Below, piece by piece: positions 2,734 through 40,071 of a DNA stretch of 64,000 nucleotides. The notes under the pieces were generated by a model that was not told the origin of the DNA, searched no databases, and saw nothing but the letters and a program-made list of their open reading frames with translations. The translations under genes and the position numbers were made by a program. Position 1 is the first letter of the stretch, and each line of letters starts with the position of its first letter. The DNA is from Cyanidioschyzon merolae (taxonomy: Eukaryota). The DNA lies in the NCBI GenBank assembly GCA_000091205.1, contig AP006495.2, one strand, 5' to 3'.

Positions 2734-4695
2734 ATGCGCAAGGTGATGTCGATTCGTGTCAAACGCTGCGTCCTACGGCAGGGCGCGTGCCGCGCTGTTG
2801 GGCGGGCGATGGCGTTGCTGTGCAAAGGAATTCCTTTACGGCACAAGGGAAACGTGGATGCTGGCGCAGCGCCGTACCCTCGAGTCCGCTTCTTTGATTT
2901 CAACTCAATTTCGTTGCACCCTCGCTGTGGTGTACTAGCAGGCGATCGACCTCAGGATGCAATATACCGGATGGAATGTGGATGAGTTGCCTGTAGGATA
3001 GATTCTTTACTGAAGTGTGCATCGAGGACTGCTTTCATTAATCAGGTCAGACATACCACAGTAATCAGACTTCTACCGAAATGGCAACTCCGGAATTCCG
3101 CGAACGTCGCTATCCAGATAAAGCACATGAACGTCGGTTTGTTTTCCCAGTCGATGAGACTTGCTTCGGACGAAGCGCTCGGAGCGTATATGGGTATGTC
3201 GGAAAGGATGCCCGTTGCACGTCCGAATGAACTCGAAGAGAACGATAGCATGATATATTCTGGGTGCAGGGGATTCATTTTGCGGCCTCAGGTTCGCTGG
3301 TAGTGGAGGCCCATGCAACAGCACCAATCACTTTGTCAAATCATTGCAGACTGGTGCCTGACGTCTGGCGACGTCCCCCTATTGGACGATGTGGTATTTG
3401 ACAATTCCGTTTGCGTTCGAGCTTTTGTGAATTTTATAGATGTCGAGCTGCTTCTCATTCCACAGTAGGTTCCGTGGTTCATCCCCATCGAAGGAGCGTT
3501 TCCTAATCGCCAAACGTAATGATCGCAAAACTGGGCGAATCGCTGAAGCGTCCCCCACACGTTTTTACTCCGAGGGCGCATTTCGTGTTTCTTCCACAAG
3601 TCCTCCTCGCTCCGGGATGGTGTGTACCTAAGAGTAGCAAGAAACGTGTTCATTTTTGAAGAAATACAATACCGAAGGAATGATCTGGGCTGTCCACTGT
3701 AGAAGGTCGAGATGGACCGAGGGCAGCGCATGGCTTCGGCGACAGAAAAATACGGAGCGATGACAGAGCACAAACTGGCATCAAGGTCTCGAGTTCGAGG
3801 ACTCGTTGCATTGGTGAGTCCCACCAGACGCAATAAACGCATGAAATTCATGACCCAACGCTTCAACGCTGCCATCAATACGACGAGATGTGTGGTACCG
3901 AAAAAGAGACCCACGGAGCTGAGGTGATCCAACTGAGTGGGAGCAGCTCTTCACCGATAGAATCGGCGAAGAGCTTCAACGCAACAGTAAGCGTAAATTA
4001 CCATGCAATCCAATGGAAGGACGTTGCCAGAAGCCGGAAAAAGTCTTCGATCATTCGACGAAATAGATCCTGTTGTATGAGCCTTATCTACGGGCCAGTA
4101 CTGAGGCCGCCAAATGAATCCACTGCAGCTAGATCAGAGGACGAAGAATACCTCGTTCCGATCGAGATCGATCGTCGATACAACGGGCGCCCTGCTCCTC
4201 GAATACCCATCTACAGTCCAACTATTTCGTCCGAGGCAAGCCGCACCAACTGAAGAAGAAAACCAACGTCCCTACACTGTGCACGGATCGCAACTTTCCA
4301 GTAAAGATGTCGTTGCTGTTTCGATGGAAATGGCCGTGATAGAACTAGAGTATTTTTCCGGACCGTATCCCAGTGTTCCCAGGATCACACGAACAAGCAG
4401 TAGAGCAGCAGAGACGCCCCCAGCTGCTACCAGGATCGCTTCTGCTTTCCCGAAACTATTCAACCGTGAACTTTTCTACCATTGATTTGAACCACGCTCT
4501 GACAAAACCAGCTTTTGAAGCGGTAAGCATCCAGCTCCTTCTTTCAGTATTCCTCATCCATCTGAGTACTACGGTACACCTGACGACCCCACGAAGGAAT
4601 GCAGTCCTCCTGGCACGATTCCGGAGAGCATCCATCCTACCGGCGATTTGTCTATAATCCAGAATCCGCATGACATAAGTGATGTCAATCGCCTG

Positions 4696-4728
<33 letters not shown>

Positions 4729-5055
4729 GGTGGAACGCAATTGACATGACAAGCGCCGACGCAGACGCGACGGACGGCAGAGAACGTCTGATGCACCACT
4801 CGTTTCGGTGCCCCGGTGGACTGCTCATCGGTGCAACGCTCTTCAAGTTCGTGTTCGTGCGTATCACGAGCACTGGTACACACTCGGGAGGACTGCGTTT
4901 TGTGGAGAGGGCTATCGAAGAGTGTGCGCTCTCGGACACGGGCAATAAGAGCGCTCGGTTGCTGTTCTTCTATTCTGTTGTTGTTGTTGTTGTTGCTATT
5001 GTTGTTGCACCTTGCTTCTGGTGACACACACCGAGTTTTCGCAAAAGGCAACGTA

Positions 5056-8000
5056 ATGCCAGGCAGCACACAGCGTGGTGGTTGGCGGGAACAACGACCA
5101 GCGCTTTCTCGAGGTACGCCGGTGAACCAGCGACGCTGGTCAGCGTGGCTTCCGCGACTCTCCTCATTGGTCGATGAGCAGCCCGTCCAGGACGTGCTGG
5201 ATGAGGTCCAGCAGCTGCTACTCGAACGCAGCACCTGGGTCACCTATGAGGACGGGGCGCGAGGCGGTGCATCCGGGCGCGGTGCAAACAAGCCGCCGGC
5301 GCCTTTTTCGTCTGCTGGCTGGGAACGGCTCCAGACACTCCTCGAAGTTGAAAAGGCCCTGGTTTCGGCACTGGGCCATCACTGCGAAGACGTGCGAGAT
5401 CGCGCCGTCGTCTTGCTCAGTGTGCTGTACGATGGGCACCCGCTGCAACTCGCCGGTGATGCGCTTCCTGTAGCCGTGACTTGTGTCGGAGAACCGGTCA
5501 CAGTTTGCATTCCATTTGCGAGCGAAGCAGATCGCGAGGCCTTCCAACCACAACGTGCCGTGTTGCGTCTGTTTCGGCCCTGGCCAAACAAAAACAAGAA
5601 TGGATATACTCGTGAAGTGCTGAGCAAACAGGCAACGAATAGTCTGCAGCTCGGAGGTAGTCGACCTCCGCGTTCGCCCAGCTCAGATGGCCCGCAACAA
5701 CGAAAACCGTCGTTGGCTACAGAGACAGGCCCGAATGCGACAAGCACGTCGCCTTCACGAGAGCAGACCGCTCAAGACTGGACAAACGCGGAAGAGGAAG
5801 CGGAACAGGAGCTTCCCGTAGGCACACACGCACTCTGGGCCGCTTGTCATGGACACTGGCAAAGCTACCCCATCAGCGTGCAGGGCGAGAGCATCCTCGT
5901 TCATCTGGGCAGTTTCGAGCAGCCGGGCTTTTACGACTGGTACATCGCTCGAGCTTCGGATGGTGTCGCCTCTCCGCTGGTAATCGCTCATCCGGTTGTC
6001 TATGCCGATGTACCGGGTATGGACTTTAGACGCCTGCGCGGCCGCTTCATCGTCCAGCCGAGGGGAGCGCGAGCCCATCGCCTCTATGAGATACCTGTTG
6101 ACCAGGTTGGCGCTCGCTGGGATGCCACCACAGGGGCGCTACTCTCCAGGGGCTCCTTCGATGCGGTGCAGGAGCTTCTGCCCCGTCTGGCAGCGAGCGG
6201 TATCACCGGGATATACGTGAGCGGCTGCCTGGAACGTCGCCTCGATGAGCACGAGCCGACACCGCACACCGTTGTCGATCGAGCGATGCCTGCCACGATC
6301 CTCGGCGGGGTGCACAAGTTCCGTCGAATGTGTGCAGAGGCCCGTCGACATCAACTGGCAACCATCGTGGACTGCTTGGATCGAGTGTCGCTGGCTCGAG
6401 CACACCGCCGCTACCGACGCATCGGCTATGTGCGTATTGTGGATGCGAAACGTCAGGTGCCTGCACTACCTCATCCTGGAACAGACTGTCACGAGGTCCA
6501 ATGGGAGGATACCGCTCTCCTGAACTACCGTCGCCTTGAGAGCTGGTATTCGCTCATTGAGGATATTTCGCAGATGGCGACTGAGCACGGTGCTGGCGGC
6601 GTTCGCCTCGACAATGCGCAGTGCGTTCCCTGTGTACTCGCTCCGGACGTTACCGAACTCGCACGTATCGACAACGACGGGATTGCGCACTATGACGACG
6701 AAGAGAAGGCATTTGGCGACGTGGTGCTGGCGAACGTCGAGGGTGGCTACTGGCGCACAGACGCCGCCATCGACGGCTATCCGAATCCTCTGCTGCTGAA
6801 ACTCACCCGCGAAATGTGGCACTGGAACCCCTCGTTCCTGGTTCTTGGTGAATCTCACTTTCATCGCGAGCGCAACCTCATTGTGAGCGGCCTGATTCCC
6901 CATACGCTGCGGGTGGCAACCATACTGGCCGGTATTTCGGGCAAGTCTCTCCGCCGCGATGGTTCCGTGCGCGCTCTCGGGGAGAACAAGCATCCCACTG
7001 TGGACTTTATCGCGCGTCTCTATCGCAATGATGCACATGCGATTCCCTCGGGGGCAATCATGGTCGGGGGCACCTGCTCCGACACCTCGCCCTACCCGAG
7101 TGTGCTCTATGGACGCCGAGCCTGGACCGCAGTCGATATGCTTTGTTTCCTGCCCGATATCCCGCTCTTACTTCTGGGCGAGGAGGATGGACGCGCCTAC
7201 CGCATCAACATGGCATCCGTCTCCCGAGAAGTAGATCCCGACACCAATCTGGAGCTGGAGGTGCCCAAGTCTCCGCGCCTGGGAGGTCACGGCCTGCCGC
7301 GCGGCTCCAGCGTCGCCTCGGGCATGAGCATGCTGCACCTGCAACAAACCAGTATGGGTGACGTACGGCGCCTGAAGCGCTCCGGCTCCCGCGAGACCGG
7401 TCTAGCGCGTCTGTCGAGTACCAACCTGCTGGGACGCAACACAACGAACCGTCGCGCGGACTCGGGAAGCATGTCGGGTGCGGCTGCTGCCATGGTGCGT
7501 TCGCGCTCCACCGAGGATATGCTGAAACTTTCGATTCGCTCGGTGTCAGCGGAGGATATTCGCCAACTCGATCTGGCCGAAGAGGATATTCGACGCGAGA
7601 TTGGTCCACAAGAGGGCTACGACATTCGCCAGATTCGCGGTCACTATGAGCATCGTCTACGTCTGCGGGCATCCTACGAGGCACTTCGCGAAGGACACAT
7701 GGTAGCACTCGTGGTGCGCGAGCAGGCCAAGTACCAGGTACTGGCCTTTGCTCGCTTCACGAGACAGCAAATCGTGCTACTCTTTATCAATGTTCGCGGT
7801 GGACACGACGGGGCACCGTTTGCCGTTCCCGTTGACACCATCGTAGATCTGCGACCGCTAGCAGAGGCACTTGTTGCGGCCGCTTTTCGAAATGGATGCA
7901 CGTATTTCGGTCCTTGGGATCGCATCATTGAACTGCGGGATTGTTTCACGGGGGCTCGAGAGCCGTCACGCTATGCGTTCGAAGAGTTTCTCTTTCGCCG

Positions 8001-10266
8001 CTTGCAGATCACGTTGAAGCCGCTAGAAACGCGGATCCTGGAACTGTGTCCTAGCTCGGAAGCGGCCGAGTCCAGCACCGATCTGCATCAGCAAACCGTC
8101 CAGCGTCTCGACGAAGACGATGAAATGTTGTTGGACGCCCGTGCCAACTGGCTCGCTGGCTACCTCGCTCGACACTGTTACGACTTGAAGGCTTTTGCCC
8201 GAGCGCTCGGCTTTCTCCAAGGCCTGCTTGCGCCCGGTAAGCAGCAACTGACCGAGGCTCGAGCTCGCCATCTGATGTGTGTCTGCCTGCAGCGAACAGC
8301 GCTGCTCGCCGGTGAGCAAGAGTATCCGCCACACGGTTTCCGTGCTGTCTCCGGCGAGCGTCTGCTTGCTTATCTTATGGTGCTGTCGAGTTGTGGAATT
8401 GATGCACTTCGCACCGTTGCACGACGCATCCTCTCCGGGAATCGAATGGGTCCGATCGTGCTCTTCAGTCCGGAGCTCGGTCGTTTCTCGAGCATCGGAG
8501 GTCTCGGTACCATGGTCGATGAACTCTCCAAAGGTCTCGCTGATCTCGGCCTCGACGTGTACGTCATCTCGCCAGCCTATACCTTCAATCGTCGTGGAGA
8601 GACGCGCTATCTCGAACGGGACGGTATTCGCTGGACCCGCAATATCGATGTGCGTATCGGGAACGTTGGTGTCGCCACGCTGGGCATCTTCGAAGGCATT
8701 GAAAACAGTGTTCGTCTGATTTTCTTTGAAAATCACTCGTACTTCCCGCGAGTCTACCAGGATCTGGGCTCTCAGGCGCGCATGATGGAGATGCTGGTCC
8801 TTGCGAATCGGGGAGTGCTTGAAATATGCTGCCACAAGCAGTTGCGACCCAGCCTCTTGGTGACCAACGATTGGATGGGGGGTCTGGTTCCCGCCTACGG
8901 GCGACTGGGCTATTTTGGTGGCTATTTCGACGACACCTGTTTCTTCCATATTGTGCACAACCTTGGCGATGCAGCCTACGAGGGTCGTCTCTACCCGAGT
9001 CCAGCTGAGGCCGGATTCGAGGCCATTCATCAGCTACCTCGCGACATTGTCATTGATCCTACCTGGAATCGCGTCGTTGTGAACCCCAGTCGTGCCGCCT
9101 TCAAGTGTGCGCACAGCTGGGGCACCGTCTCGCCGAGCTACCTGGAGGAGTTGCTCACGAATCACCCACTGCGTCCCGTGATGCGTCTCTGTCGAGCGCC
9201 ATTCGGGACGTCCAACGGTATTCGTGTGCAGGATCGTTTGGCGTTACTGCGTCGGGTAGCGTCGAGCCACGAGGAGGCCAAGAGCGTTCTCCAGAGCAAA
9301 TACTTTGGAGTGACGGATCCGGGGATTCCGGTGTTTGCATTTGTCGGGCGTCTGACGAGTCAGAAAGGGGTGCACCTGATTCTCTCGGCAACAGATGCAC
9401 TGATGAATCTGGCTGGCCCCAGCAAGTGCCAGATCCTCATAGGCGGCATGGCGAACCGGGCGGATCCGTACGGTGCGGACTGTGCTCGACGCTGCAACGA
9501 GCTCAAGCAACGCTACCGGGGGTATTTTTCTGCTGACCCGGATAACTTTTTCCATGATGGACCGTTGGTCAACTTGGGCGCCGACTTTTGCCTCATGCCC
9601 TCGTTGTTCGAGCCCGGCGGCATTGTACAGCAGGAGTTCTTCGTGGTAGGCACCCCGGTGATCGCGTACCGCACCGGTGGCCTGAAAGACACGGTGATCG
9701 AATGGGATCCGGTGGAGCTCACCGGATCCGGGTTCGTATTCCACGAGTATACGATGGATGATTTTCTGGCTGCTTGCAAACGAGCGCTCCGCGTCTACGC
9801 CAAGCCGGACGAGTACCAGCTTCTGCGGGAGTCGACCCGCGAGTTTGTCATTGATGTTGCCCAGGTTGCCGAGGCGTGGTCGCGGGAATTCCATCGGGTC
9901 AAGAACATCATCCCGTGTCGGGATGATGTGTTGGCTCTGGATCTGGAAGCGGTGGCGAGCGAGCTCTCCAGTGCCGTCAAGGATGGTGTTTGTGTACCAG
10001 CGGTGCCCGTGGATATCGATTGGCCCGATGCATCCGCTTCCAGTGTCTCTGTGAAGGGTTCCTTTGATGGCTGGAGTCGTGAATGGCCCCTGCGTCGTGA
10101 CTCAGGCAAAGCAAACGCATGGGAGCGCACGTTCTGGCTACCACCGGGTACCTACGAGATCAAGTACCGCGTGGACGGCGAGTGGCTTGTTCACCCGCAC
10201 AAACCAGTAACGAATACGAGCGGGCTCTTGAATAACCTGCTGGAGGTGCCTCGACAGACCCCATAA
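5056..10266 (+). CDS. Large multidomain alpha-glucan synthase-like protein. From N to C it has a divergent GH13 (alpha-amylase family) domain, a GT5 glycogen/starch-synthase domain and a C-terminal CBM48 (AMPK-beta glycogen-binding) domain.
   Basis: GH13-like region: GITGIYVSGCLERR and GVRLDNAQ (compare GFRLDAAKH), followed by LGES. GT5 region: FSSIGGLGTMVDELSKGLADLGLDVYVISPAY and GTPVIAYRTGGLKDTV (glycogen-synthase C-terminal motif). CBM48 region: KGSFDGWSREWPLRR...LPPGTYEIKYRVDGEWLVHPHKP. The ORF call begins at a GTG at 4816; the first ATG in frame is 5056. Confidence 0.85.
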   Translation: MPGSTQRGGWREQRPALSRGTPVNQRRWSAWLPRLSSLVDEQPVQDVLDEVQQLLLERSTWVTYEDGARGGASGRGANKPPAPFSSAGWERLQTLLEVEKALVSALGHHCEDVRDRAVVLLSVLYDGHPLQLAGDALPVAVTCVGEPVTVCIPFASEADREAFQPQRAVLRLFRPWPNKNKNGYTREVLSKQATNSLQLGGSRPPRSPSSDGPQQRKPSLATETGPNATSTSPSREQTAQDWTNAEEEAEQELPVGTHALWAACHGHWQSYPISVQGESILVHLGSFEQPGFYDWYIARASDGVASPLVIAHPVVYADVPGMDFRRLRGRFIVQPRGARAHRLYEIPVDQVGARWDATTGALLSRGSFDAVQELLPRLAASGITGIYVSGCLERRLDEHEPTPHTVVDRAMPATILGGVHKFRRMCAEARRHQLATIVDCLDRVSLARAHRRYRRIGYVRIVDAKRQVPALPHPGTDCHEVQWEDTALLNYRRLESWYSLIEDISQMATEHGAGGVRLDNAQCVPCVLAPDVTELARIDNDGIAHYDDEEKAFGDVVLANVEGGYWRTDAAIDGYPNPLLLKLTREMWHWNPSFLVLGESHFHRERNLIVSGLIPHTLRVATILAGISGKSLRRDGSVRALGENKHPTVDFIARLYRNDAHAIPSGAIMVGGTCSDTSPYPSVLYGRRAWTAVDMLCFLPDIPLLLLGEEDGRAYRINMASVSREVDPDTNLELEVPKSPRLGGHGLPRGSSVASGMSMLHLQQTSMGDVRRLKRSGSRETGLARLSSTNLLGRNTTNRRADSGSMSGAAAAMVRSRSTEDMLKLSIRSVSAEDIRQLDLAEEDIRREIGPQEGYDIRQIRGHYEHRLRLRASYEALREGHMVALVVREQAKYQVLAFARFTRQQIVLLFINVRGGHDGAPFAVPVDTIVDLRPLAEALVAAAFRNGCTYFGPWDRIIELRDCFTGAREPSRYAFEEFLFRRLQITLKPLETRILELCPSSEAAESSTDLHQQTVQRLDEDDEMLLDARANWLAGYLARHCYDLKAFARALGFLQGLLAPGKQQLTEARARHLMCVCLQRTALLAGEQEYPPHGFRAVSGERLLAYLMVLSSCGIDALRTVARRILSGNRMGPIVLFSPELGRFSSIGGLGTMVDELSKGLADLGLDVYVISPAYTFNRRGETRYLERDGIRWTRNIDVRIGNVGVATLGIFEGIENSVRLIFFENHSYFPRVYQDLGSQARMMEMLVLANRGVLEICCHKQLRPSLLVTNDWMGGLVPAYGRLGYFGGYFDDTCFFHIVHNLGDAAYEGRLYPSPAEAGFEAIHQLPRDIVIDPTWNRVVVNPSRAAFKCAHSWGTVSPSYLEELLTNHPLRPVMRLCRAPFGTSNGIRVQDRLALLRRVASSHEEAKSVLQSKYFGVTDPGIPVFAFVGRLTSQKGVHLILSATDALMNLAGPSKCQILIGGMANRADPYGADCARRCNELKQRYRGYFSADPDNFFHDGPLVNLGADFCLMPSLFEPGGIVQQEFFVVGTPVIAYRTGGLKDTVIEWDPVELTGSGFVFHEYTMDDFLAACKRALRVYAKPDEYQLLRESTREFVIDVAQVAEAWSREFHRVKNIIPCRDDVLALDLEAVASELSSAVKDGVCVPAVPVDIDWPDASASSVSVKGSFDGWSREWPLRRDSGKANAWERTFWLPPGTYEIKYRVDGEWLVHPHKPVTNTSGLLNNLLEVPRQTP

Positions 10267-25300: not shown

Positions 25301-25953
25301 GCATTCGATCTTTCCCAATGCCGCAGACGTCGGCTTCGACGTACGGCAAGGTATTTTTTTGGCGGGCACTGAACGAGGTAGTTGCATATGGTTCATATCT
25401 ATAAATAACTGTACATATGCATCCCCTGGCGCGAAAATCTCTTTCTCGCCTTCTTCCCCCAGGAATACATGCCCGTCACCAGCCGCTGGTTACCAAGATC
25501 AGCGCCGTTCGATCACCCCCAAGTACCGAGAACCATAGAGTTTAGCCCAGGATCCATGACAAGTTCAAACACAGTCTCTGACTCTTTCATACCTACCAGG
25601 CATCTTTCTTGAGTCCCTCTACCATGATATCATTTCCAAATATCTAAAGGACCAAATACGTCCATAAGCACCATCCCATCATTTCTATGCATCTCAGAAA
25701 TCAAGCACCAGTACGTGAACGTACGATCCGATGAGCATTTTCGCGCCTTCTTTCAAACGTGTTGGCGCCTCCCGCGCATCCATCCTGCAGAGCGCTGCGG
25801 CGCCTCGCGCGAAAGCCAACTGCCCTGGCGCCAATCGACGGACGCAGACCGCCGCTGGCGCTGTGCAAGAGCTCTCGAGCAACAACAAGGTACGCGCTTG
25901 AACATTGTCGAAGTGGACTTCCCAGCAGAGAGAGCCGAAGATTTGAACCAGCA

Positions 25954-28389
25954 ATGGAGCGGTGTGTAGTGAAACGTGATGGTCGTCGACAGCCGGTAAA
26001 GTTTGACAAAATCACTGCGCGAATCAAAAAGCTGGCCTACGGTTTGGACCCGCTCGTGGACGTCACCGAGGTTGCGCAGAAGGTGTGCGCTGGTGTATAC
26101 GACGGGGTGCATACCTCGGAGCTTGATGAGTTAGCTGCTGAAACTGCAGCGTACATGAGCACACGGCATCATGACTATTCGATTTTAGCTGCGCGGATCG
26201 CGGTAAGCAACTTGCACAAGAACACCGAAAAGTCATTCAGTGCGGTGATGGAACGCCTATATGCCTACAGGTCTCCGAAAACGAACGATCCAGCGCCGCT
26301 GATTGCGAGCGACGTCATTGAAATAGTGCGCCGCCACGCCGAAACGATAGATGGCGCTATCATCTACGACCGCGATTTCTCTTACGACTACTTTGGGTTC
26401 AAAACTTTGGAGCGCTCGTATCTGTTACGAATCGACGGCAAGGTGGTCGAGCGTCCCCAGCAAATGCTGATGCGCGTGGCGATTGGCATCCACAAGGAGG
26501 ACCTAGATGCCGCACTAGAAACCTATGACTATATGAGTCAAAAGTACTTTACGCATGCGAGTCCGACGCTCTTCAATGCCGGCACACCGCGCCCACAGCT
26601 CAGTTCGTGTTTCCTCCTGAGCATGACGGAGGACTCCATCGAGGGAATCTATGACACACTGAAGCGCTGCGCAGTGATTAGCAAGAGCGCGGGCGGTATC
26701 GGTCTGGCGATCCACAACATTCGAGCAACGAAATCTTACATTCGCGGAACGAACGGATCGAGCAACGGTATCGTGCCGATGCTTCGTGTCTTCAATGACA
26801 CAGCCCGCTATGTGGATCAGGGGGGTGGGAAACGCAAGGGCGCCTTTGCTGTATACCTGGAGCCATGGCATGCTGATATCTTTGAGTGGCTTGATCTGAA
26901 GAAGAACCACGGCAAAGAGGAAGCACGTGCACGAGATCTCTTCTATGCACTTTGGACGCCGGATCTATTCATGCGGCGAGTGGAGGCCAACGAACAGTGG
27001 TCCCTTTTCTGTCCGAATGAGGCGCCTGGTCTTGCGGATGTCTGGGGCGATGCGTTCGACGAACTCTATCAGCGCTACGAGGCTGAAGGCAGGGCACGAG
27101 AGGTGATCCCTGCGCGAAAGCTCTGGTTCTCGATTCTCGAGTCGCAGATTGAGACAGGCACGCCCTACATGCTCTACAAGGATCATTGCAACCGGAAAAG
27201 TAATCAGCAGAATCTAGGCACGATCCGCTGCTCCAATCTCTGCACCGAGATCGTAGAGTACACTGCACCAGACGAGGTTGCGGTGTGCAACCTCGCGAGT
27301 ATCGCTCTGAACAAGTTTGTGGTGCCAGGAGACCGTGAGCGCGGAACTTGTCCCGTATTTAACTTCGACGAGCTCGCCTTTGTGACTCGCATGGTTACCA
27401 AAAACCTGAACAAGATTATCGATGTGAACTTTTACCCCATTCCCGAGGCACAGAACTCGAATCTGCGTCACCGCCCGATTGGCATTGGTGTCCAAGGACT
27501 CGCTGATGCCTTCATCCTCATGCGGATGCCATTTGAAAGCGATGAGGCTCGTGCGCTGAACCAGGAAATCTTCGAGTGTATCTACTACAACGCATTGCAA
27601 GCGTCGATCGAGCTTGCGGAGCGCGACGGACCGTATGCCTCTTTCGAGGGCTCACCAGCGGCACGAGGACAGCTTCAGTTTGATCTTTGGAACGTGAAAC
27701 CGACTTCATCTCGTTGGGATTGGGATGCGCTTAAAGAGCGTATCACTCTTCACGGACTGCGTAATTCGCTACTGGTTGCCCCGATGCCGACTGCGTCCAC
27801 CTCGCAGATCCTGGGCAACAACGAATGTTTCGAGCCGTATACCTCGAATCTGTACACCAGGCGCGTGCTCGCTGGAGAGTTCACCGTCGTGAATCAACAT
27901 CTTGTCCGTGACCTGCAGGAGCTCGGCCTCTGGAACCCGCTCGTGAAGAACAAGATCATCGCCCACGGTGGCTCGATCCAGCAAATCCCTGAGATCCCCC
28001 AAGACATACGAGACCTCTATAAGACCGTCTGGGAGGTCAGCCAACGGCGCCTACTCGACCTGGCTGCTGATCGCGGTGCCTTCATCGACCAGAGCCAGTC
28101 CCTGAACGTTTACATCGCGCAACCAACGATCGGCAAGTTGAGCTCGATGCATTTCCACGGTTGGCGTCTTGGCCTCAAAACCGGTATGTATTACCTCCGG
28201 ACGCGACCAGCAGCTGATGCTATCAAGTTCACGCTCGATCAGCGTATTCTCAAGGAAGAGAACCACACCGCTGTCAATGGATCGCAACTGCCGTGCAATC
28301 TCACGCCGCGTACCAGCGCAGCTGAGCAGTTCGCTGCACTCGCCTGCTCCCTAGATAAGAAGGATGACTGCATCGCGTGCGGAAGCTGA
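25954..28389 (+). CDS. RNR1: Ribonucleoside-diphosphate reductase large subunit (R1, class Ia).
   Basis: [24 protein letters not shown] (ATP cone), LSSCFL, NLCTEI and the C-terminal CxxC tail (CIACGS). The track ORF starts upstream at 25759, but the conserved N-terminus begins at the ATG at 25954. Confidence 0.95.
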
Positions 28390-28650
28390 GCTGTTACCGA
28401 TGATCGACTCTAAACCGTCTCAAATTATCCCATGATCGACTAGGTATGTACCAGAGCGTCTTGACGAATACCTCTTGTCGTGTTGAGGCACTGATCAACG
28501 AGCTTTCTCGTGCCTGCTGAGCTGCAGGTGCAGCGGCACTGGATTATCCACTGGGCGTGTCGTGCGTACCGTGTGTGTCGAGTCTGGTGGCGGCAACACG
28601 TGCGCTGCGTACGTCTTGCCGCGGAAGTGACGAAATGCCAAGGTAGTGAG

Positions 28651-29176
28651 AAACGTAATCCCTGATAGCAAAATGTATATCTTCGTATTCAATACATGAA
28701 CGCCTCTGATTCCCTTTGGAGAGAAGGACTATGCGAAGGCACTGAGAAACCTAATCCCTGATAGCATCATGTATATCTTCGTATTCAATACATGAACGCC
28801 TCTGATTCCCTTTGGAGAGAAGGACTATGCGAAGGCACTGAGAAACCTAATCCCTGATAGCATCATGTATATCTTCGTATTCAATACATGAACGCCTCTG
28901 ATTCCCTTTGGAGAGAAGGACTATGCAGGCACTGAGAAACGTAATCCCTGATAGCATCATGTATATCTTCGTATTCAATACGTGAACGCCTCTGATTCCC
29001 TTTGGAGAGAAGGACTATGCGAAGGCACTGAGAAACCTAATCCCTGATAGCATCATGTATATCTTCGTATTCAATACATGAACGCCTCTGATTCCCTTTG
29101 GAGAGAAGGACTATGCAGGCACTGAGAAACGTAATCCCTGATAGCATCATGTATATCTTCGTATTCAATACATGAA
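28651..29176. repeat. Tandem minisatellite of about 5.6 units of 96 bp (93-96 bp variants).
   Basis: Direct repeats of GGCACTGAGAAACCTAATCCCTGATAGCATCATGTATATCTTCGTATTCAATACATGAACGCCTCTGATTCCCTTTGGAGAGAAGGACTATGCGAA. Unit starts are at about 28651, 28738, 28834, 28928, 29024 and 29118. Each unit contains the inverted repeat CATGTAT...ATACATG. Confidence 0.95.
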
Positions 29177-34709: not shown

Positions 34710-37700
34710 TCACGAGGCTAGCGATTGCCAGGAAGCCGACGAAACAGGAGCCAGCAACGATGGTAGACGCATCAGCGCCTGGTCGACTTCAGCACCGTGA
34801 TCCCGTTCGGGTTTGTTCACGACGGTGCTCGCGAGGAAGAATTCGCAGCTGCGTCGGCGCAATGGATGTGGACCGCTCAACTGCAAAAGCGACGCATCGA
34901 GTTCTTCGGAAAGCCCCGGATTCTCGCTGATCTCCTGGCGAACGCGGTCGAATAACGCTCGACTGTAGACTCGGCGACCGGGCATCGGCCTGGATGACGG
35001 TAACGTGGTCTGTGTCGACGGCACTCGTTCGTCAGCAACAACAGACGCTGTTGTATGCACATCCGCTTCTGCACTCGACGACGACGACGACGACGACGAC
35101 GAGCTATCGGGCATGGCGCTGGTGGACGATTCCCCGGGCCCGGTGGACGTGTTCGTCGTGAGCGAAAAGATACTCTCGTCGTGTTCATAGTACTGGATGA
35201 GTTCGCGTGACGGATATCGCTGAAAGTGCTCGGAGAGCGCCAGCCCAGTTCGAATCGCAAACGCATACACGTGCATGAACAGATTCGGAAAGCGACTTGC
35301 AAAATATGTGTACAGATTGGAGTTGGTCGATGCTTTGGCACGAGTTGTCTCGAGCGTGGAGGTGTTCACGGCGTTGTCGCGGGAGCGCACTTCCATGGGG
35401 TCATCCTCCACCGGAATGGGGCCCAGGAGCGCCTTCACCGCATCCGGCTGTTGATGGTAGTGGGTGCGCTTGTTGCGAGCGAGACGCAGCAGATCAACAA
35501 TGCTCGAACCGTTATAACTCCTCCCGCGCAGGCTCAGCAGCACACTGGTATCCATACGAAGGCTCCAGTTGCCCAGCGGGCCCAGCACTGTCGACTCGCA
35601 GCCCCGTTCGATCTCTTGTCGAAGGTATCGGCTGTCTGGGTGCTCGAACAGCGCATCACTCACGTCAATGAGAAACTGGAGTTTCCGAGCGTCACTCCAG
35701 AAAAACGGATGACCAAGGAGCGCCTTTGCCGACGGACGCCGCTCTGGTTCATGCTGAATCGCAAGGCGAACGAGGTCAAAGGCCTCGGGCCAAGCACGAA
35801 GCGCGCTGAGGTCCGCTGCACCCGCCAGGATGTTCGCATCACGTTGAAAGACAAGCTCTCCGAACGGGTGACTCCCCATTGTTAGTACATAGTAGGTAAT
35901 ACAGCCGACACTGAAGATGTCAACTGCTCGAGTTAGCCGCGCAGGTCGTGCCGCATCCGCTCCACCGTTCTCCGAATGCGTCATTGACTCGCAGGCGGTT
36001 GCGTCGCCAGCTCGCTCCCGGGCATCATCGACAGCGCTTGTTTCGCTGTGCACACTATTGAGTCCCTCGAAAAGCGAGGCGCCCCGGAGAACCTCCGGGG
36101 GTCGCCACCCCACCGAGCCCACAGCAGTCGCACCAGCTGTGAAGGAGCCCCGACCCGCATCCAACCGTTTTGCAAGACCAACGTCTGCGATTTTCACGAT
36201 ATCATCAGACCCTATGGCCAGCAGCACATTCGCCGGCTTCAGGTCGCGATGTACAATGCCGTGATCATGTAATTCCGCAATACCTAGCAGGAGACCACGA
36301 AGCGCCCGGACGGTGGCAGGCGGCGGACCGAGCTGCAGCGGACCCGCCGCGCGTCTATCGACCTCTGTGGACAGCTCGTCCAGCAGTGGACAACGAGTCG
36401 CAGGAAGCTCGCCTCGTTCTACACGATCCTGCAAGGAACCTGCACAAAGCTCCAGCGCTACGTAGATAAAGTCGCCGCTCTCCTCCATGGCGTAGTATCG
36501 CAAGATGTGTTGACAGGATTCGTCGAGTTCAATCAGAACCTCAATTTCTCGCCGCGCAATTTGGTAGAAACTTTTCAAAAGTCGTTTGACTGCAACCCTG
36601 CGGTATCCAGGTAGAAGGAGTCCCTCGTAGACACTAGTTCCATGGCTCCCGTATCCGATGACGTTCGGCGAAATGAGAAGCCGTCCCACTTTCTGGTAGC
36701 CGGTCGGCAACGGTGCCTCACTGCCTGTTGCAGAGTCCGTTACAGAGCGCGGGCGTTCGACTCGCTGAATTGGAACCGGCTTCGGTACCAGCGAAGAGCG
36801 CTCAAAGCCTCGTGACCTGTCGTTCTCCTGGGCGCGGGCAGCTCGCGGCTGCGTTGCGCCAGTCATCATCATCACCCGCTTCGTCTCCCGACGCCGCAAC
36901 ACTGGTGGCGGACTCGGTGTCCTTTGACGCTCGCTCGAGTGACGCTGCTCACGCTCGGTCCGTCGCATGCGCCATATGGTCCAGAGTGCGAGCGCTAGAG
37001 CTAGCGGCCCAATGCCTGCAAAAAATATCGCGACCACAAGAAGCACGCCTCCGTGGACGGGCGCGTGGTCATACACCGATGTGCCAAACGAGCTGTAAGC
37101 GTTCTGTGGCATCCCGCGCGGCTTTCGATACAACTCAGCAGACGGCGGCAGGCACATTTGCTGCCATTCATCCCGGTATCGCAAAGTCGTAGGCGGGTCC
37201 GGTGATTGCAGCGGCACGGGGCGAGACCATTGCCAAAAGTGCCGGGTAGCGCGAACGGCGTCGCTGGTGCCTCCATCAGGCAGTGCTACCGGTGAGCTTG
37301 CCGCAGTGTCTGTGATAAGAACGATATCGCCGATAGCGCGGAGCGATAAGATCGGGTATGGAAACTCTGCAGACCACATCGTGGTGCCTCTGTCGGCGTC
37401 GCGTACGACGACAAAGCGTCCATTATCTGCCAGTATCGCAACATAGCGAGCCTTATTCTGGACAGGTCGCGCAGCTCGGGGCACTTGCGGGTCTTCGGGA
37501 TCGAGCGGAGACTCTTCGAGGGTATCACTGCTCACCATGTGGCGCGCGGGACAGCGTGATTCCCCCGCCAAAACTCTTCGTCCGAAAAGAAAGGGTGCTA
37601 AAAACTCGCCCGCATAATGCGCGGGTTCGTCCAATAGATACATTTCATAGTCAGCGTAGGTCACGTTCCAGCTTGCTTCTCCTGTTAGTGGATCCACAAA

Positions 37701-38504
37701 CCGCATGCCCGAGTCCGTCCGCGTAATCACGAGCACTGGTTCCGCATTCTCTTTTTCAAGGGGCTGCTCCGAGTGCCTCTGATCCGGGCGCGAGCCGATC
37801 CCAGTTGCACCGCCTCCAGCTGAGGTCGCATCATCCCATTTACAGCGCCTGCTTGCCTCGTCATCCTCGAAGGATATGCGACGGAGAAGCTCGCCATCCC
37901 GGAGCCGCACTGTAAACGCCCGAGTCTCGCGCCGTTGTATTGGAATGCCGTACGGCACCGCAGGTGCAGGCGCTGGCTGCGATGGAAGCGGTTTGCTTAC
38001 CTCCGCAACACGAGCGTCGCCATGATACGGCTCTGGGGACGGCACCGACTGGTCTCGATTAAGAGTGTTAGCCGGCGGTCCGTCTGTGCCCTTCCCGGAA
38101 CGCTGGCGTTGCTGCGTCGACGCCGCTGCCTCCCTCCGCGCAAGACCCGACGTCGGGCTATGCCCTAGCTGGTCGTCGCTCTTGGCGCGTGTATTATACC
38201 CGCCATCCAAAGCCACAGGGTCCGTGTTAATATGCCACAAGGTTTGTCCCGACGGGACGTCCAGCGCGCGCACGGTACCGTCTAACAGGGCGGCGATGAG
38301 CATCGTTGGCCGACCAGCCCGCGAGCCAGTTGCACCTTGGGGAAAGAGCTGGTCGCCTGAGCTCAACTCAGAGTTCTTTCGTGTGGAGCGGTGCTGGCGA
38401 AAGGCGTCCGCTCCCAGCGTGAACAGAACACACTGCAGTACGATGGGTGTCAAGAGCAGCAGGGCGAGAAACGGGCGAAACCGCCCTCTCCGCGCACTGC
38501 CCAT
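34710..38504 (-). CDS. IRE1: IRE1-type serine/threonine kinase/endoribonuclease. It has a signal peptide, a luminal domain, a TM segment, a kinase domain and a KEN RNase domain, followed by a Ser-rich C-terminal extension of about 200 aa.
   Basis: Signal peptide MGSARRGRFRPFLALLLLTPIVLQ begins at the ATG at 38504. TM segment LLVVAIFFAGIGPLALALALWTIW. Kinase motifs HRDLKPANVLL and ADVGLAKRL. IRE1-specific HPFFWSDARKLQFLIDVSD and the KEN C-terminus LRLARNKRTHYHQQPDAVKALLGPIPVEDDP...YFASRFPNLFMHVYAF. The track ORF begins 207 nt upstream at 38711. Confidence 0.9.
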   Translation of the reverse strand: MGSARRGRFRPFLALLLLTPIVLQCVLFTLGADAFRQHRSTRKNSELSSGDQLFPQGATGSRAGRPTMLIAALLDGTVRALDVPSGQTLWHINTDPVALDGGYNTRAKSDDQLGHSPTSGLARREAAASTQQRQRSGKGTDGPPANTLNRDQSVPSPEPYHGDARVAEVSKPLPSQPAPAPAVPYGIPIQRRETRAFTVRLRDGELLRRISFEDDEASRRCKWDDATSAGGGATGIGSRPDQRHSEQPLEKENAEPVLVITRTDSGMRFVDPLTGEASWNVTYADYEMYLLDEPAHYAGEFLAPFLFGRRVLAGESRCPARHMVSSDTLEESPLDPEDPQVPRAARPVQNKARYVAILADNGRFVVVRDADRGTTMWSAEFPYPILSLRAIGDIVLITDTAASSPVALPDGGTSDAVRATRHFWQWSRPVPLQSPDPPTTLRYRDEWQQMCLPPSAELYRKPRGMPQNAYSSFGTSVYDHAPVHGGVLLVVAIFFAGIGPLALALALWTIWRMRRTEREQRHSSERQRTPSPPPVLRRRETKRVMMMTGATQPRAARAQENDRSRGFERSSLVPKPVPIQRVERPRSVTDSATGSEAPLPTGYQKVGRLLISPNVIGYGSHGTSVYEGLLLPGYRRVAVKRLLKSFYQIARREIEVLIELDESCQHILRYYAMEESGDFIYVALELCAGSLQDRVERGELPATRCPLLDELSTEVDRRAAGPLQLGPPPATVRALRGLLLGIAELHDHGIVHRDLKPANVLLAIGSDDIVKIADVGLAKRLDAGRGSFTAGATAVGSVGWRPPEVLRGASLFEGLNSVHSETSAVDDARERAGDATACESMTHSENGGADAARPARLTRAVDIFSVGCITYYVLTMGSHPFGELVFQRDANILAGAADLSALRAWPEAFDLVRLAIQHEPERRPSAKALLGHPFFWSDARKLQFLIDVSDALFEHPDSRYLRQEIERGCESTVLGPLGNWSLRMDTSVLLSLRGRSYNGSSIVDLLRLARNKRTHYHQQPDAVKALLGPIPVEDDPMEVRSRDNAVNTSTLETTRAKASTNSNLYTYFASRFPNLFMHVYAFAIRTGLALSEHFQRYPSRELIQYYEHDESIFSLTTNTSTGPGESSTSAMPDSSSSSSSSSSSAEADVHTTASVVADERVPSTQTTLPSSRPMPGRRVYSRALFDRVRQEISENPGLSEELDASLLQLSGPHPLRRRSCEFFLASTVVNKPERDHGAEVDQALMRLPSLLAPVSSASWQSLAS

Positions 38505-40071
38505 AGCAGTCTCACTGTTCGGTTCGTTACAGACAATCCTTCTGTTAGGGATTAAGAAACGCTCCCCAAAATCACCCACGTTGAGAAAGAAAAAAGAAAA
38601 CTTGCCTCCAGAGGCTATGCAACGATAGCTTCTAGAGACGTTTCGAATGGTGGCATGGCCTCCGAACCGTTGTACCCCGTGGCAAGATCGAGTCTGTACA
38701 TAATTATCCAAAAGTTGAAGGCGCTCGATACGCCGGACAGCGCTGCGCGGCGCTGCTACCGGGACACGTTGCGGCTATCGCGCGATCGCGTATCGCGTGA
38801 CTGTCGATTGAATCCTTTTTGTCCAGATATATTCCTTATTTGGACAGAGCGATATGGACGCAGGTTGTTTTTTGATGGCAAAACGCTGATATGGACCATG
38901 GATGCCAGTCTGGGGGATAGATATTGCAACAAATGAAAGCGCTCAGCAATGTTCACTCTCGTTCCGAGTTCCACGACGCACATTTTCGCACGGCTATACT
39001 GGTCGCTTTGCACGTTCCCTGGTGCGCCGCATACTGGCAGTGAGCACCCGCAATAGAGCCTATGCTGCTCGTGCGGATACTGAACGGAGACAGAGCGGCT
39101 TTGCTATATCAGTGGGGGTGTCGGCTCGATGCGTGGTGCATTCGACACGGAACCAGGGTACATTATCATTCTGGGGCCTGCCAGCTGCGAATGCAGACCC
39201 ACTGCCTGTGGCAGCGCGAATTGATTCGCAGGGAGTCCTCTGCGACCAGCACGACGCCCAGAAGGAGCTTATCCGCTCCGAGTCCCAGAGTAACCCGCGT
39301 TTCGGACGAGTTGCGTAGACCTCACTACAGCACTAGGGACTGGGGGAAGCGTGAAGCACGAGCCCGGGAGACTCTTGCGGCTCGCGGGACCCTCTGCTTC
39401 TACGGTAAACTTTCGACCATACGGAAAGCTTTTTGCCCCTTTTGACGTTTATCGTAGAGAGGCAAAGACATCTTTATATCGTTGCTAGGTAGTAGTGAGT
39501 TTCAGTTCTACGTTCGATATAGTGCGGTCGGTTAGCGCTCCTCCGTATTCAGCATGCATGGGACACGACTCGCATGTCGTCGTTGAAGGGAAACACGATC
39601 CTAACTATTCGTTGACTTGCTATTCTACAGTACAAGATCTATTTGCGTGAAAGTCGTAGCAAAGTATAGCTTTCAATTCAATCGCGTGTCAAGCCTCAAC
39701 TAAGTGTATTCAAGTGATTTTTTGCGGTTTATAGCAGAAGCGTTCAACGTGCGTTGTTTATCCAAAATTAAAAAATGGGAATAGTATAGAGAAGGAGGTG
39801 GAGGATCCTGCAGGCCGAGTGTCGCCGGCTGCCAGAAAAAAACGGAAAATAATGCCGAGTCCAGAAGAAAAGGAGGAGAATAAGAAGCAAGGGAGGGAGC
39901 CCCCGTAGTCAATGGCTGCACGAAAGACGACACTGCGACGACATGGTAGTCGAAGCCTGTCTTCCCAAACATATCAAGGATCCCTACAAGCAAAAGATGC
40001 GAGAGGCCATCAGAAGCCGTATCCATTCGTACTCCAGGTAGGTTCATAAGGTTTCTGGAGGACTGAATCAT

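Follow-up and report, generated by a model that had tools for sequence, protein, structure and literature searches.

Which kind of glucan synthase is encoded by a gene whose product joins an alpha-amylase-like region to a synthase domain and a glycogen-binding module, and does the amylase-like part of such a protein still act as an enzyme? This question is raised by positions 5056-10266 (plus strand) of a 64,000-nucleotide stretch of DNA from Cyanidioschyzon merolae (contig AP006495.2, assembly GCA_000091205.1), which in its full length is referred to below as the window. Red algae and many heterotrophic protists make their storage alpha-glucan with a single UDP-glucose GT5 enzyme, whereas green plants need at least five synthases for this task. 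An earlier note on this locus had described an unusual fusion of domains from the families GH13 (alpha-amylases), GT5 (glycogen synthases) and CBM48 (glycogen-binding modules) in a soluble protein of about 1,740 amino acids (aa). The fusion itself is real: the product is 1736 aa in length, its GT5 and CBM48 domains are recognized by Pfam and its GH13-like part by a profile of its own family. However, this build is the usual one in a known family, since the gene already has a name (CMM317C) and the same architecture is present in all of the full-length red-algal orthologues and in 34 of the collected relatives of at least 1200 aa. The half-degenerate GH13 module, taken together with its canonical bacterial relatives, is the sole part of this locus that merits the attention of specialists.

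The coding sequence (5056-10266, +) is intron-free and lies within a single unbroken open reading frame (ORF) that extends from 4816 to 10266 in the list of translated ORFs; the first ATG of this ORF is at 5056 and its TAA stop codon occupies 10264-10266. The JGI protein P0001 is identical to the predicted product at 1712 of 1714 residues (99.9%). Primers for quantitative PCR of the C. merolae starch synthase gene CMM317C have been published (PMC9424615), and they map within this ORF at 6420-6439 (+, exact) and at 6515-6534 (-, with one mismatch). The homologue from Cyanidiococcus yangmingshanensis shows 80% identity to the product, a Chondrus crispus protein annotated as "Starch synthase" matches it at 46% identity across 82% of the query, and the Galdieria "starch synthase" is a member of the same family. 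Because both of the published primers fall inside the ORF and the orthologues are annotated as starch synthases, the gene at 5056-10266 is, on this evidence, the already named starch synthase gene CMM317C of C. merolae. The earlier note had itself allowed for an ordinary member of a well-described family with the same architecture, and this is what the full-length starch synthase orthologues point to. The window is accordingly nuclear DNA of C. merolae, and CMM317C is the only GT5 gene in it. An in-frame extension upstream, beginning at a GTG codon at 4816 and encoding poly-Leu, was considered and rejected as coding; as this stretch consists of CTG/GTT repeats and is absent from the closest homologue, that of Cyanidiococcus, position 5056 is the likely start. 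A (CTG)12 repeat (4693-4727) and a (TGT/GTT)n run (approximately 4975-5012) are located just 5' of the start codon, and these runs give rise to poly-Leu and poly-Gln in spurious ORFs on both strands. No signal or targeting peptide was seen in a simple hydropathy scan of the product, the N-terminus of which (MPGSTQRGGWREQRP) is non-hydrophobic, and the same protein contains no convincing transmembrane segment, the highest Kyte-Doolittle mean over 19 residues being 1.61 and falling within folded domains. The product is thus predicted to be soluble, which fits a cytosolic location.

The stretch of approximately 1100 residues ahead of the GT5 domain is far from featureless, and its largest part is a module with the GH13 fold (aa 329-1000; 6040-8055, +) comprised of a predicted (beta/alpha)8 barrel and a C-domain beta-sandwich. 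A check of this assignment by hidden Markov models, which the earlier note had proposed, gave a divided answer. With the single sequence it was negative, as the CMM317C product had no match to the Pfam Alpha-amylase model (PF00128) at E<=1, and a phmmer search of the PDB with its N-terminal half also returned no match. In contrast, a profile of the N-terminal module (aa 300-1010) that was built from 14 homologues (alignment A1) detected 85 PDB sequences at E<10, with a best value of 5.5e-5, and all of the 60 that were listed are GH13 proteins. The matched blocks are colinear with those of the solved enzymes: they cover strands beta1-beta3 with region I, place GVRLDNAQS upon GFRLDAVHA, and include the beta8 block vPllllGEE.G. 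When the same profile was searched against 1.84 billion representative proteins, 658 relatives were found at E<=1e-3 and 109 at E<=1e-30, and two of the distant relatives, P0096 (63.6 bits) and P0128 (38.3 bits), reach the threshold of the Pfam Alpha-amylase model and also carry a C-terminal GT5 domain. A structure model of the N-terminal half of CMM317C likewise revealed GH13, with rBAT, 4F2hc and ISA2 among its structural matches. As the family profile, the structure model and the distant relatives passing the Pfam threshold all agree, the assignment of the GH13 fold to this module is sound.

The state of the catalytic site was read from the hallmark columns of 178 family sequences aligned to the profile with hmmalign. 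The register of these columns was anchored by the bacterial protein P0096, which aligns to solved amylases at 5.7e-17, and whose GFRID, IGESYW and GNHDEE motifs align to regions II, III and IV of the amylases 4gkl, 3dhu and 4e2o. The equivalent of region II in CMM317C is R517-L-D519-N-A-Q522-C523 (6604-6624, +), in which the Arg and the nucleophile Asp are retained and the His is replaced by Gln. In the profile alignment this block, GvrLDnaqs, falls on GFRLDAVHA of TreZ, and the same column of P0096 reads GFRIDVAHA, itself aligned to DGFRCDVA of 4gkl. The acid/base Glu of region III corresponds by column alignment to Glu599 in LGES (6850-6852, +); 84 of the 122 family sequences aligned here have E in this column, which matches the pairing of IGESYW in P0096 with LLGE-VW in 4e2o. 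At region IV the hmmalign columns place S675-D676-T677 (7078-7086, +) at the N-H-D position, so that the transition-state-stabilizing Asp is replaced by Thr. The P0096 motif GNHDEE aligns here to ENHDQPR of 4gkl and ENHDNAR of 3dhu. Among the family members aligned, NHD is retained only in the bacterial type; the column reads THL or THS in other red algae, NHS in P0021 and SDT or TDT in the Cyanidiales, and the Asp is Thr, Leu or Ser in every eukaryotic member aligned, being absent also from Acytostelium, Mastigamoeba and P0021. Within this alignment the S/T-D-T motif is a Cyanidiales-specific change in comparison to the T-H-L/S of the other red algae.

In summary of these columns, CMM317C retains the region I Asp (D439), Arg517, the nucleophile Asp519 and the acid/base Glu599, and it has lost the region I His (now Arg443), the region II His (Gln522, followed by Cys523) and the region IV His (Asp676), the substitutions of the region I and II histidines by Arg and Gln being common to the red-algal clade. 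Alignment of the GH13 catalytic triad thus accounts for two of the three carboxylates, Asp519 and Glu599, with Thr677 in the third position. The earlier note had placed RLD at 517, NAQC at 520, LGES at 597 and RNDAH at 657, and all of these positions were confirmed. Its description of a partly conserved catalytic block is borne out for the Asp of RLD, the Glu of LGES and the alteration of the His in NAQC, but RNDAH (aa 657-661; 7024-7038, +) does not belong to that block. This motif was rejected as region IV, as it is located in a helix of the model (residues 350-363, corresponding to aa 649-662) that precedes strand beta7, and the region IV column lies 18 residues downstream. In GH13 enzymes generally, loss of the third carboxylate decreases the activity by orders of magnitude. 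Since the transition-state Asp and three histidines are gone, little or no canonical GH13 activity is predicted, and a canonical GH13 transferase activity of this module appears unlikely.

The synthase domain presents a different picture in its catalytic motifs. The GT5 (GT-B fold) glucan synthase domain at aa 1134-1601 (8455-9858, +) is defined by Pfam matches to Glyco_transf_5 (PF08323, aa 1134-1370, 1.8e-33) and Glycos_transf_1 (PF00534, aa 1425-1580, 2.6e-13) as well as by matches in the PDB. The motifs GRLTSQKG (aa 1431) and FEPGG (aa 1518) are retained, including the Arg and Lys of the former and the Glu of the latter, and they align to the solved synthase 6gnf; as judged from these motifs, the GT-B domain is intact. 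The NCBIfam model TIGR02095 (glgA) matches the product at 2e-46, yet with 158.7 bits against a cut-off of 328.45, and all of the NCBIfam GlgA equivalogs score far under their cut-offs. Similarly, in the PDB search the solved GBSS, GlgA, SSI and SSIV proteins gave just 59-67 bits each. The clade of UDP-glucose GT5 glycogen/starch synthases, which has a eukaryotic ancestry and is found in red algae, glaucophytes and many heterotrophs, is equally remote from the bacterial GT5 and the GT3 enzymes (PMC6086201), and the low scores to solved synthases agree with the distance of this clade from bacterial GT5. Over the GT5 domain, CMM317C is 43-59% identical to members of its family in other supergroups, and the corresponding values for the bacterial GH13-GT5 fusions are 25-29%. 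CMM317C is a member of the eukaryotic family of GT5 glycogen/starch synthases of the UDP-glucose type. The donor-binding motif "KTGGL" takes the form RFSSIGGLG in CMM317C (aa 1143-1151; 8482-8508) and STAGGLG in other red algae, its Lys being replaced by Ser or Thr across the family, and this change may bear on the use of UDP-glucose rather than ADP-glucose.

The protein ends in a CBM48 module of the AMPK-beta glycogen-binding type (aa 1650-1733; 10003-10254, +), for which the match to AMPK1_CBM (PF16561) has a significance of 9e-17 and a score of 61.5 bits against a cut-off of 26.8. In the alignment of this module to that of AMPK beta2 (4.1e-10), GSFxxWS keeps its Trp, YKFxVDGxW its Lys and Trp, and NN the first of its two Asn residues, with Ser at the Leu position. 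The four retained residues (W, K, W and N) correspond to glycogen contacts in the structures of the AMPK beta1 module.

Beyond the GH13-type barrel, the N-terminal region contains three other parts. The first is a short HEAT/TOG-like helical repeat at aa 26-133 (5131-5454, +), in which the motif LGHHxxxVRxxAVVxLNVLYDGH is conserved. It is followed by a beta-rich module at aa 139-335 (5470-6060, +) with a conserved GFYDW, invariant G, D and W columns, predicted strands at model residues 119-154, 247-279 and 308-314, a disordered stretch at 162-229, and a low-complexity insert at approximately aa 181-250 (5596-5805). No fold match was obtained for aa 139-335 alone; it may represent the N-domain found ahead of the barrel in many GH13 proteins. 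The third is a disordered, Ser/Arg-rich insert (S 14%, R 12%) at aa 725-855 (7228-7620, +), situated in the barrel after strand beta8 (LLLLGEEDGRAY) and before helix alpha8, where the predicted local distance difference test (pLDDT) score of the model is below 50 (model residues 404-553). Within it, the sequence MVRSRSTEDM (aa 813-822; 7492-7521) is conserved, and R828-x-x-S831 (7537-7548; IRSVS) is invariant in 14 of 14 aligned sequences (A1 columns R529 and S532). MVRSRSTEDM fits the AMPK/SnRK1-type consensus, and the loop with its invariant RxxS is likely to be a phospho-regulatory element. It may also be observed that this candidate phospho-site loop (7492-7548) occurs in an enzyme that bears an AMPK-beta-type carbohydrate-binding module.

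How these parts would work together can be outlined as follows, in a reading that we regard as probable: the GT5 domain does the chemistry, the CBM48 and the pseudo-amylase module bind glucan, and the Ser/Arg loop regulates. In the cytosol, the GT5 domain would extend alpha-1,4 chains at their non-reducing ends with glucose from UDP-glucose, both the donor and the location being those described for the family (PMC6086201). The CBM48 and the GH13-derived module would form non-catalytic glucan-binding surfaces that keep the enzyme on the growing semi-amylopectin and offer acceptor chains to the GT5 domain, and such surfaces could help a single enzyme to serve all chain classes, the "Swiss-knife" property. 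As the histidines of regions I and II and the His-Asp pair of region IV have been lost, the GH13-like cleft is most likely a pseudo-amylase, that is a binder and neither a hydrolase nor a transferase, and the disordered loop with its invariant RxxS would supply a phospho-regulatory input. The suggestion of the earlier note of a synthase-plus-transferase machine that binds its own product is thereby upheld as regards the synthase and the product-binding CBM48, whereas the transferase is doubtful given the missing region IV Asp and histidines. Its further suggestion of a storage alpha-glucan pathway that uses GT5 rather than GT3 is already in the literature (PMC6086201).

Several points weigh against this reading. 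Glucan binding by the GH13-like module is something we infer, and the specificity for UDP-glucose is that described for the family (PMC6086201). Arg517, Asp519 and Glu599 are strongly conserved across the red algae, which is more than a scaffold would require and may point to a catalytic activity that is residual or altered. In addition, the pLDDT of the AlphaFold2 model is below 50 over the region IV stretch, and the register there comes from the sequence alignment. A further point is that the S/T-D-T motif of the Cyanidiales (Cyanidioschyzon, Cyanidiococcus and P0004) puts an Asp (D676) at the position immediately preceding that of the canonical region IV Asp.

These same residues are the starting point of a bifunctional alternative, in which the GH13-like module is still catalytic through Asp519 and Glu599, as an alpha-1,4-glucanotransferase or as a primer-generating or branching-type transglycosylase, comparable to the arrangement in Ags1. 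The near-invariance of the nucleophile Asp, its preceding Arg and the acid/base Glu in the red-algal clade would be in keeping with it, as would the position of the Cyanidiales Asp676 adjoining the canonical one, and the existence of bacterial relatives that combine a fully canonical GH13 site with GT5 makes it probable that the ancestor was bifunctional. In red algae a single UDP-glucose GT5 "Swiss knife enzyme" is described as sufficient for starch synthesis, including both priming and elongation (PMC6086201), a description that is also in its favour. However, the replacement of the region IV Asp in all of the aligned eukaryotic members, with the loss of activity by orders of magnitude that is generally associated with it, the Arg443 and Gln522 in place of the substrate-binding histidines together with the Asp in place of the region IV His in the Cyanidiales, and the failure of the Pfam Alpha-amylase model to recognize the module all argue against this alternative, and we consider it unlikely. 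Less probable still is that the N-terminal 1100 or so residues are mainly a protein-interaction and regulatory platform (for oligomerization, for docking of glycogenin, branching enzyme or isoamylase, or for kinase input) with glucan binding left to the CBM48, since despite the HEAT/TOG-like repeat, the conserved Ser/Arg loop with its AMPK/SnRK1-type consensus and invariant RxxS, and the partner-type proteins rBAT, 4F2hc and ISA2 among the structural matches, the conserved residues (Arg517, Asp519, Glu599 and the beta8 GEE motif) line the former sugar cleft, which fits a carbohydrate contact better than a protein interface.

We therefore retain the reading in which GT5 is the catalyst and the GH13-like module and CBM48 hold the glucan. 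If the GH13-like module binds or processes acceptor chains, then residues D519, E599 and S831, in an alga amenable to genetics, would provide a handle on the question of how one enzyme does everything, and a module that matters to the enzyme would also be informative as to how the eukaryotic GT5 synthase arose. In a more far-reaching proposal, which is speculative and which we hold to be doubtful, the eukaryotic GT5 synthase shares ancestry with, or descends from, a bifunctional GH13-GT5 enzyme of the bacterial type, the GH13 module is still essential, either as a non-canonical two-carboxylate transglycosylase or primer-handling site or as an acceptor-selecting cleft, and the RxxS loop couples it to energy signalling of the SnRK1/AMPK type. 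An essential GH13 module, if true, would explain how one enzyme primes and elongates all of the chain classes of floridean starch.

The distribution of the architecture is relevant to these proposals. The full-length red-algal homologues all carry PF08323, PF00534 and PF16561 in addition to the N-terminal module. Besides the 34 relatives noted above with GH13-like, GT5 and CBM48 parts, 17 of the collected relatives of at least 1200 aa have the N-terminal module and GT5 only, in part because the gene models are truncated and in part because CBM48 is genuinely absent. The core consisting of the N-terminal module and GT5 is also present in Blastocystis (treated in PMC5608401), Cantina, a Gregarina, Mastigamoeba, where it is annotated as a "putative starch synthase", and Acytostelium. 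As this core spans stramenopiles, an apicomplexan, Amoebozoa and bacteria, the idea in the earlier note that the architecture may be diagnostic for the lineage is not supported. Of the bacterial members, P0096 is a protein of 1299 aa from a metagenome-assembled genome (GCA_054042725.1; L001, 6001-9900) in a bacterial neighbourhood with SmpB, Era and MiaB-like genes, and P0172 is a protein of 4169 aa from an Omnitrophota bacterium. These bacterial GH13-GT5 fusions appear to be uncharacterized, and they could represent the ancestor or the donor of the eukaryotic architecture. A full-text literature search, which did not extend to CAZy and InterPro entries, found no mention of a GH13-like module in this enzyme among the papers that could be read.

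The neighbours of CMM317C in the window are eukaryotic in type and include an amidase, a ribonucleotide reductase large subunit, an IRE1-like kinase/RNase, a DEAD helicase and a bromodomain protein. No tRNA genes were found in the window. A bacterial-style reading of the window was rejected in view of the absence of tRNAs, the eukaryotic type of the neighbouring genes and the unsupported minus-strand ORFs; those overlying CMM317C (e.g., 8023-9030) were likewise rejected as genes, as they are shadows of the GC-rich coding strand. The ribonucleotide reductase large-subunit gene (25759-28389) is followed by an intergenic tandem array (28635-29176) of a 96-bp unit repeated 5.7 times with 96% matches. 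The IRE1-like gene (34710-38711, -) corresponds to an ORF of 1333 aa in which a PQQ-like beta-propeller, a protein kinase and a Ribonuclease 2-5A domain are present. Between 40001 and 42000 the GC content falls to 0.488, with a GC skew of +0.16 and an AT skew of +0.18 (a purine-rich strand), and no ORF of at least 250 aa is found there.

When CMM317C is compared with known systems, its closest counterparts are the floridean starch synthase of red algae and the GT5 glycogen synthase of Blastocystis, Amoebozoa and alveolates, with which it shares the domain order, the soluble character and a full-length orthology to the red-algal proteins. Nothing distinguishes it from this family apart from details specific for the Cyanidiales, viz. 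the S/T-D-T instead of T-H-L/S at region IV, a region II that ends in Cys and not in Ser, and a longer low-complexity insert at aa 181-250. The plant and green-algal SSIII/SSIV and the bacterial GlgA, which use ADP-glucose, resemble it in the GT-B fold and the motifs GRLxxQKG and FEPxG, but CMM317C differs from them in the change of the KTGGL Lys to Ser, in the absence of a CBM53 or a coiled-coil N-terminus, and in the UDP-glucose use and cytosolic location described for its family (PMC6086201); membership in the GlgA/SSIII-IV group was rejected in view of the sub-threshold TIGR02095 score and the absence of a CBM53 match. A GT3 affiliation was likewise set aside, as Pfam gives only GT5/GT4-type models and CBM48 for this protein, which agrees with the distinction from both GT3 and Ags1 drawn in the earlier note.

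The fungal Ags1 protein has a signal peptide, an extracellular GH13 domain and a C-terminal multi-pass membrane domain, contains no CBM48 and makes alpha-1,3-glucan. What CMM317C has in common with Ags1/Mok1 is the combination, within a single polypeptide, of a GH13-family module at the N-terminus and a GT5 synthase domain after it. However, the GH13 site of CMM317C is degenerate, and the protein was rejected as a member of the Ags1 group given its non-hydrophobic N-terminus, its lack of a transmembrane segment and its terminal CBM48. The bacterial GH13-GT5 fusions P0096, P0128 and P0172 share the same N-terminal module family (profile E-value of 7.5e-45 for P0096) followed by GT5, but P0096 and P0128 pass the Pfam Alpha-amylase threshold and P0096 retains the canonical residues of regions II and III and the NHD motif, whereas CMM317C possesses the CBM48 and the Ser/Arg loop that the bacterial proteins lack. 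Lastly, the inactive GH13-fold proteins ISA2, rBAT/SLC3A1 and 4F2hc function as separate subunits or partners, whereas in CMM317C the module is fused to the synthase itself and two of its three catalytic carboxylates are retained.

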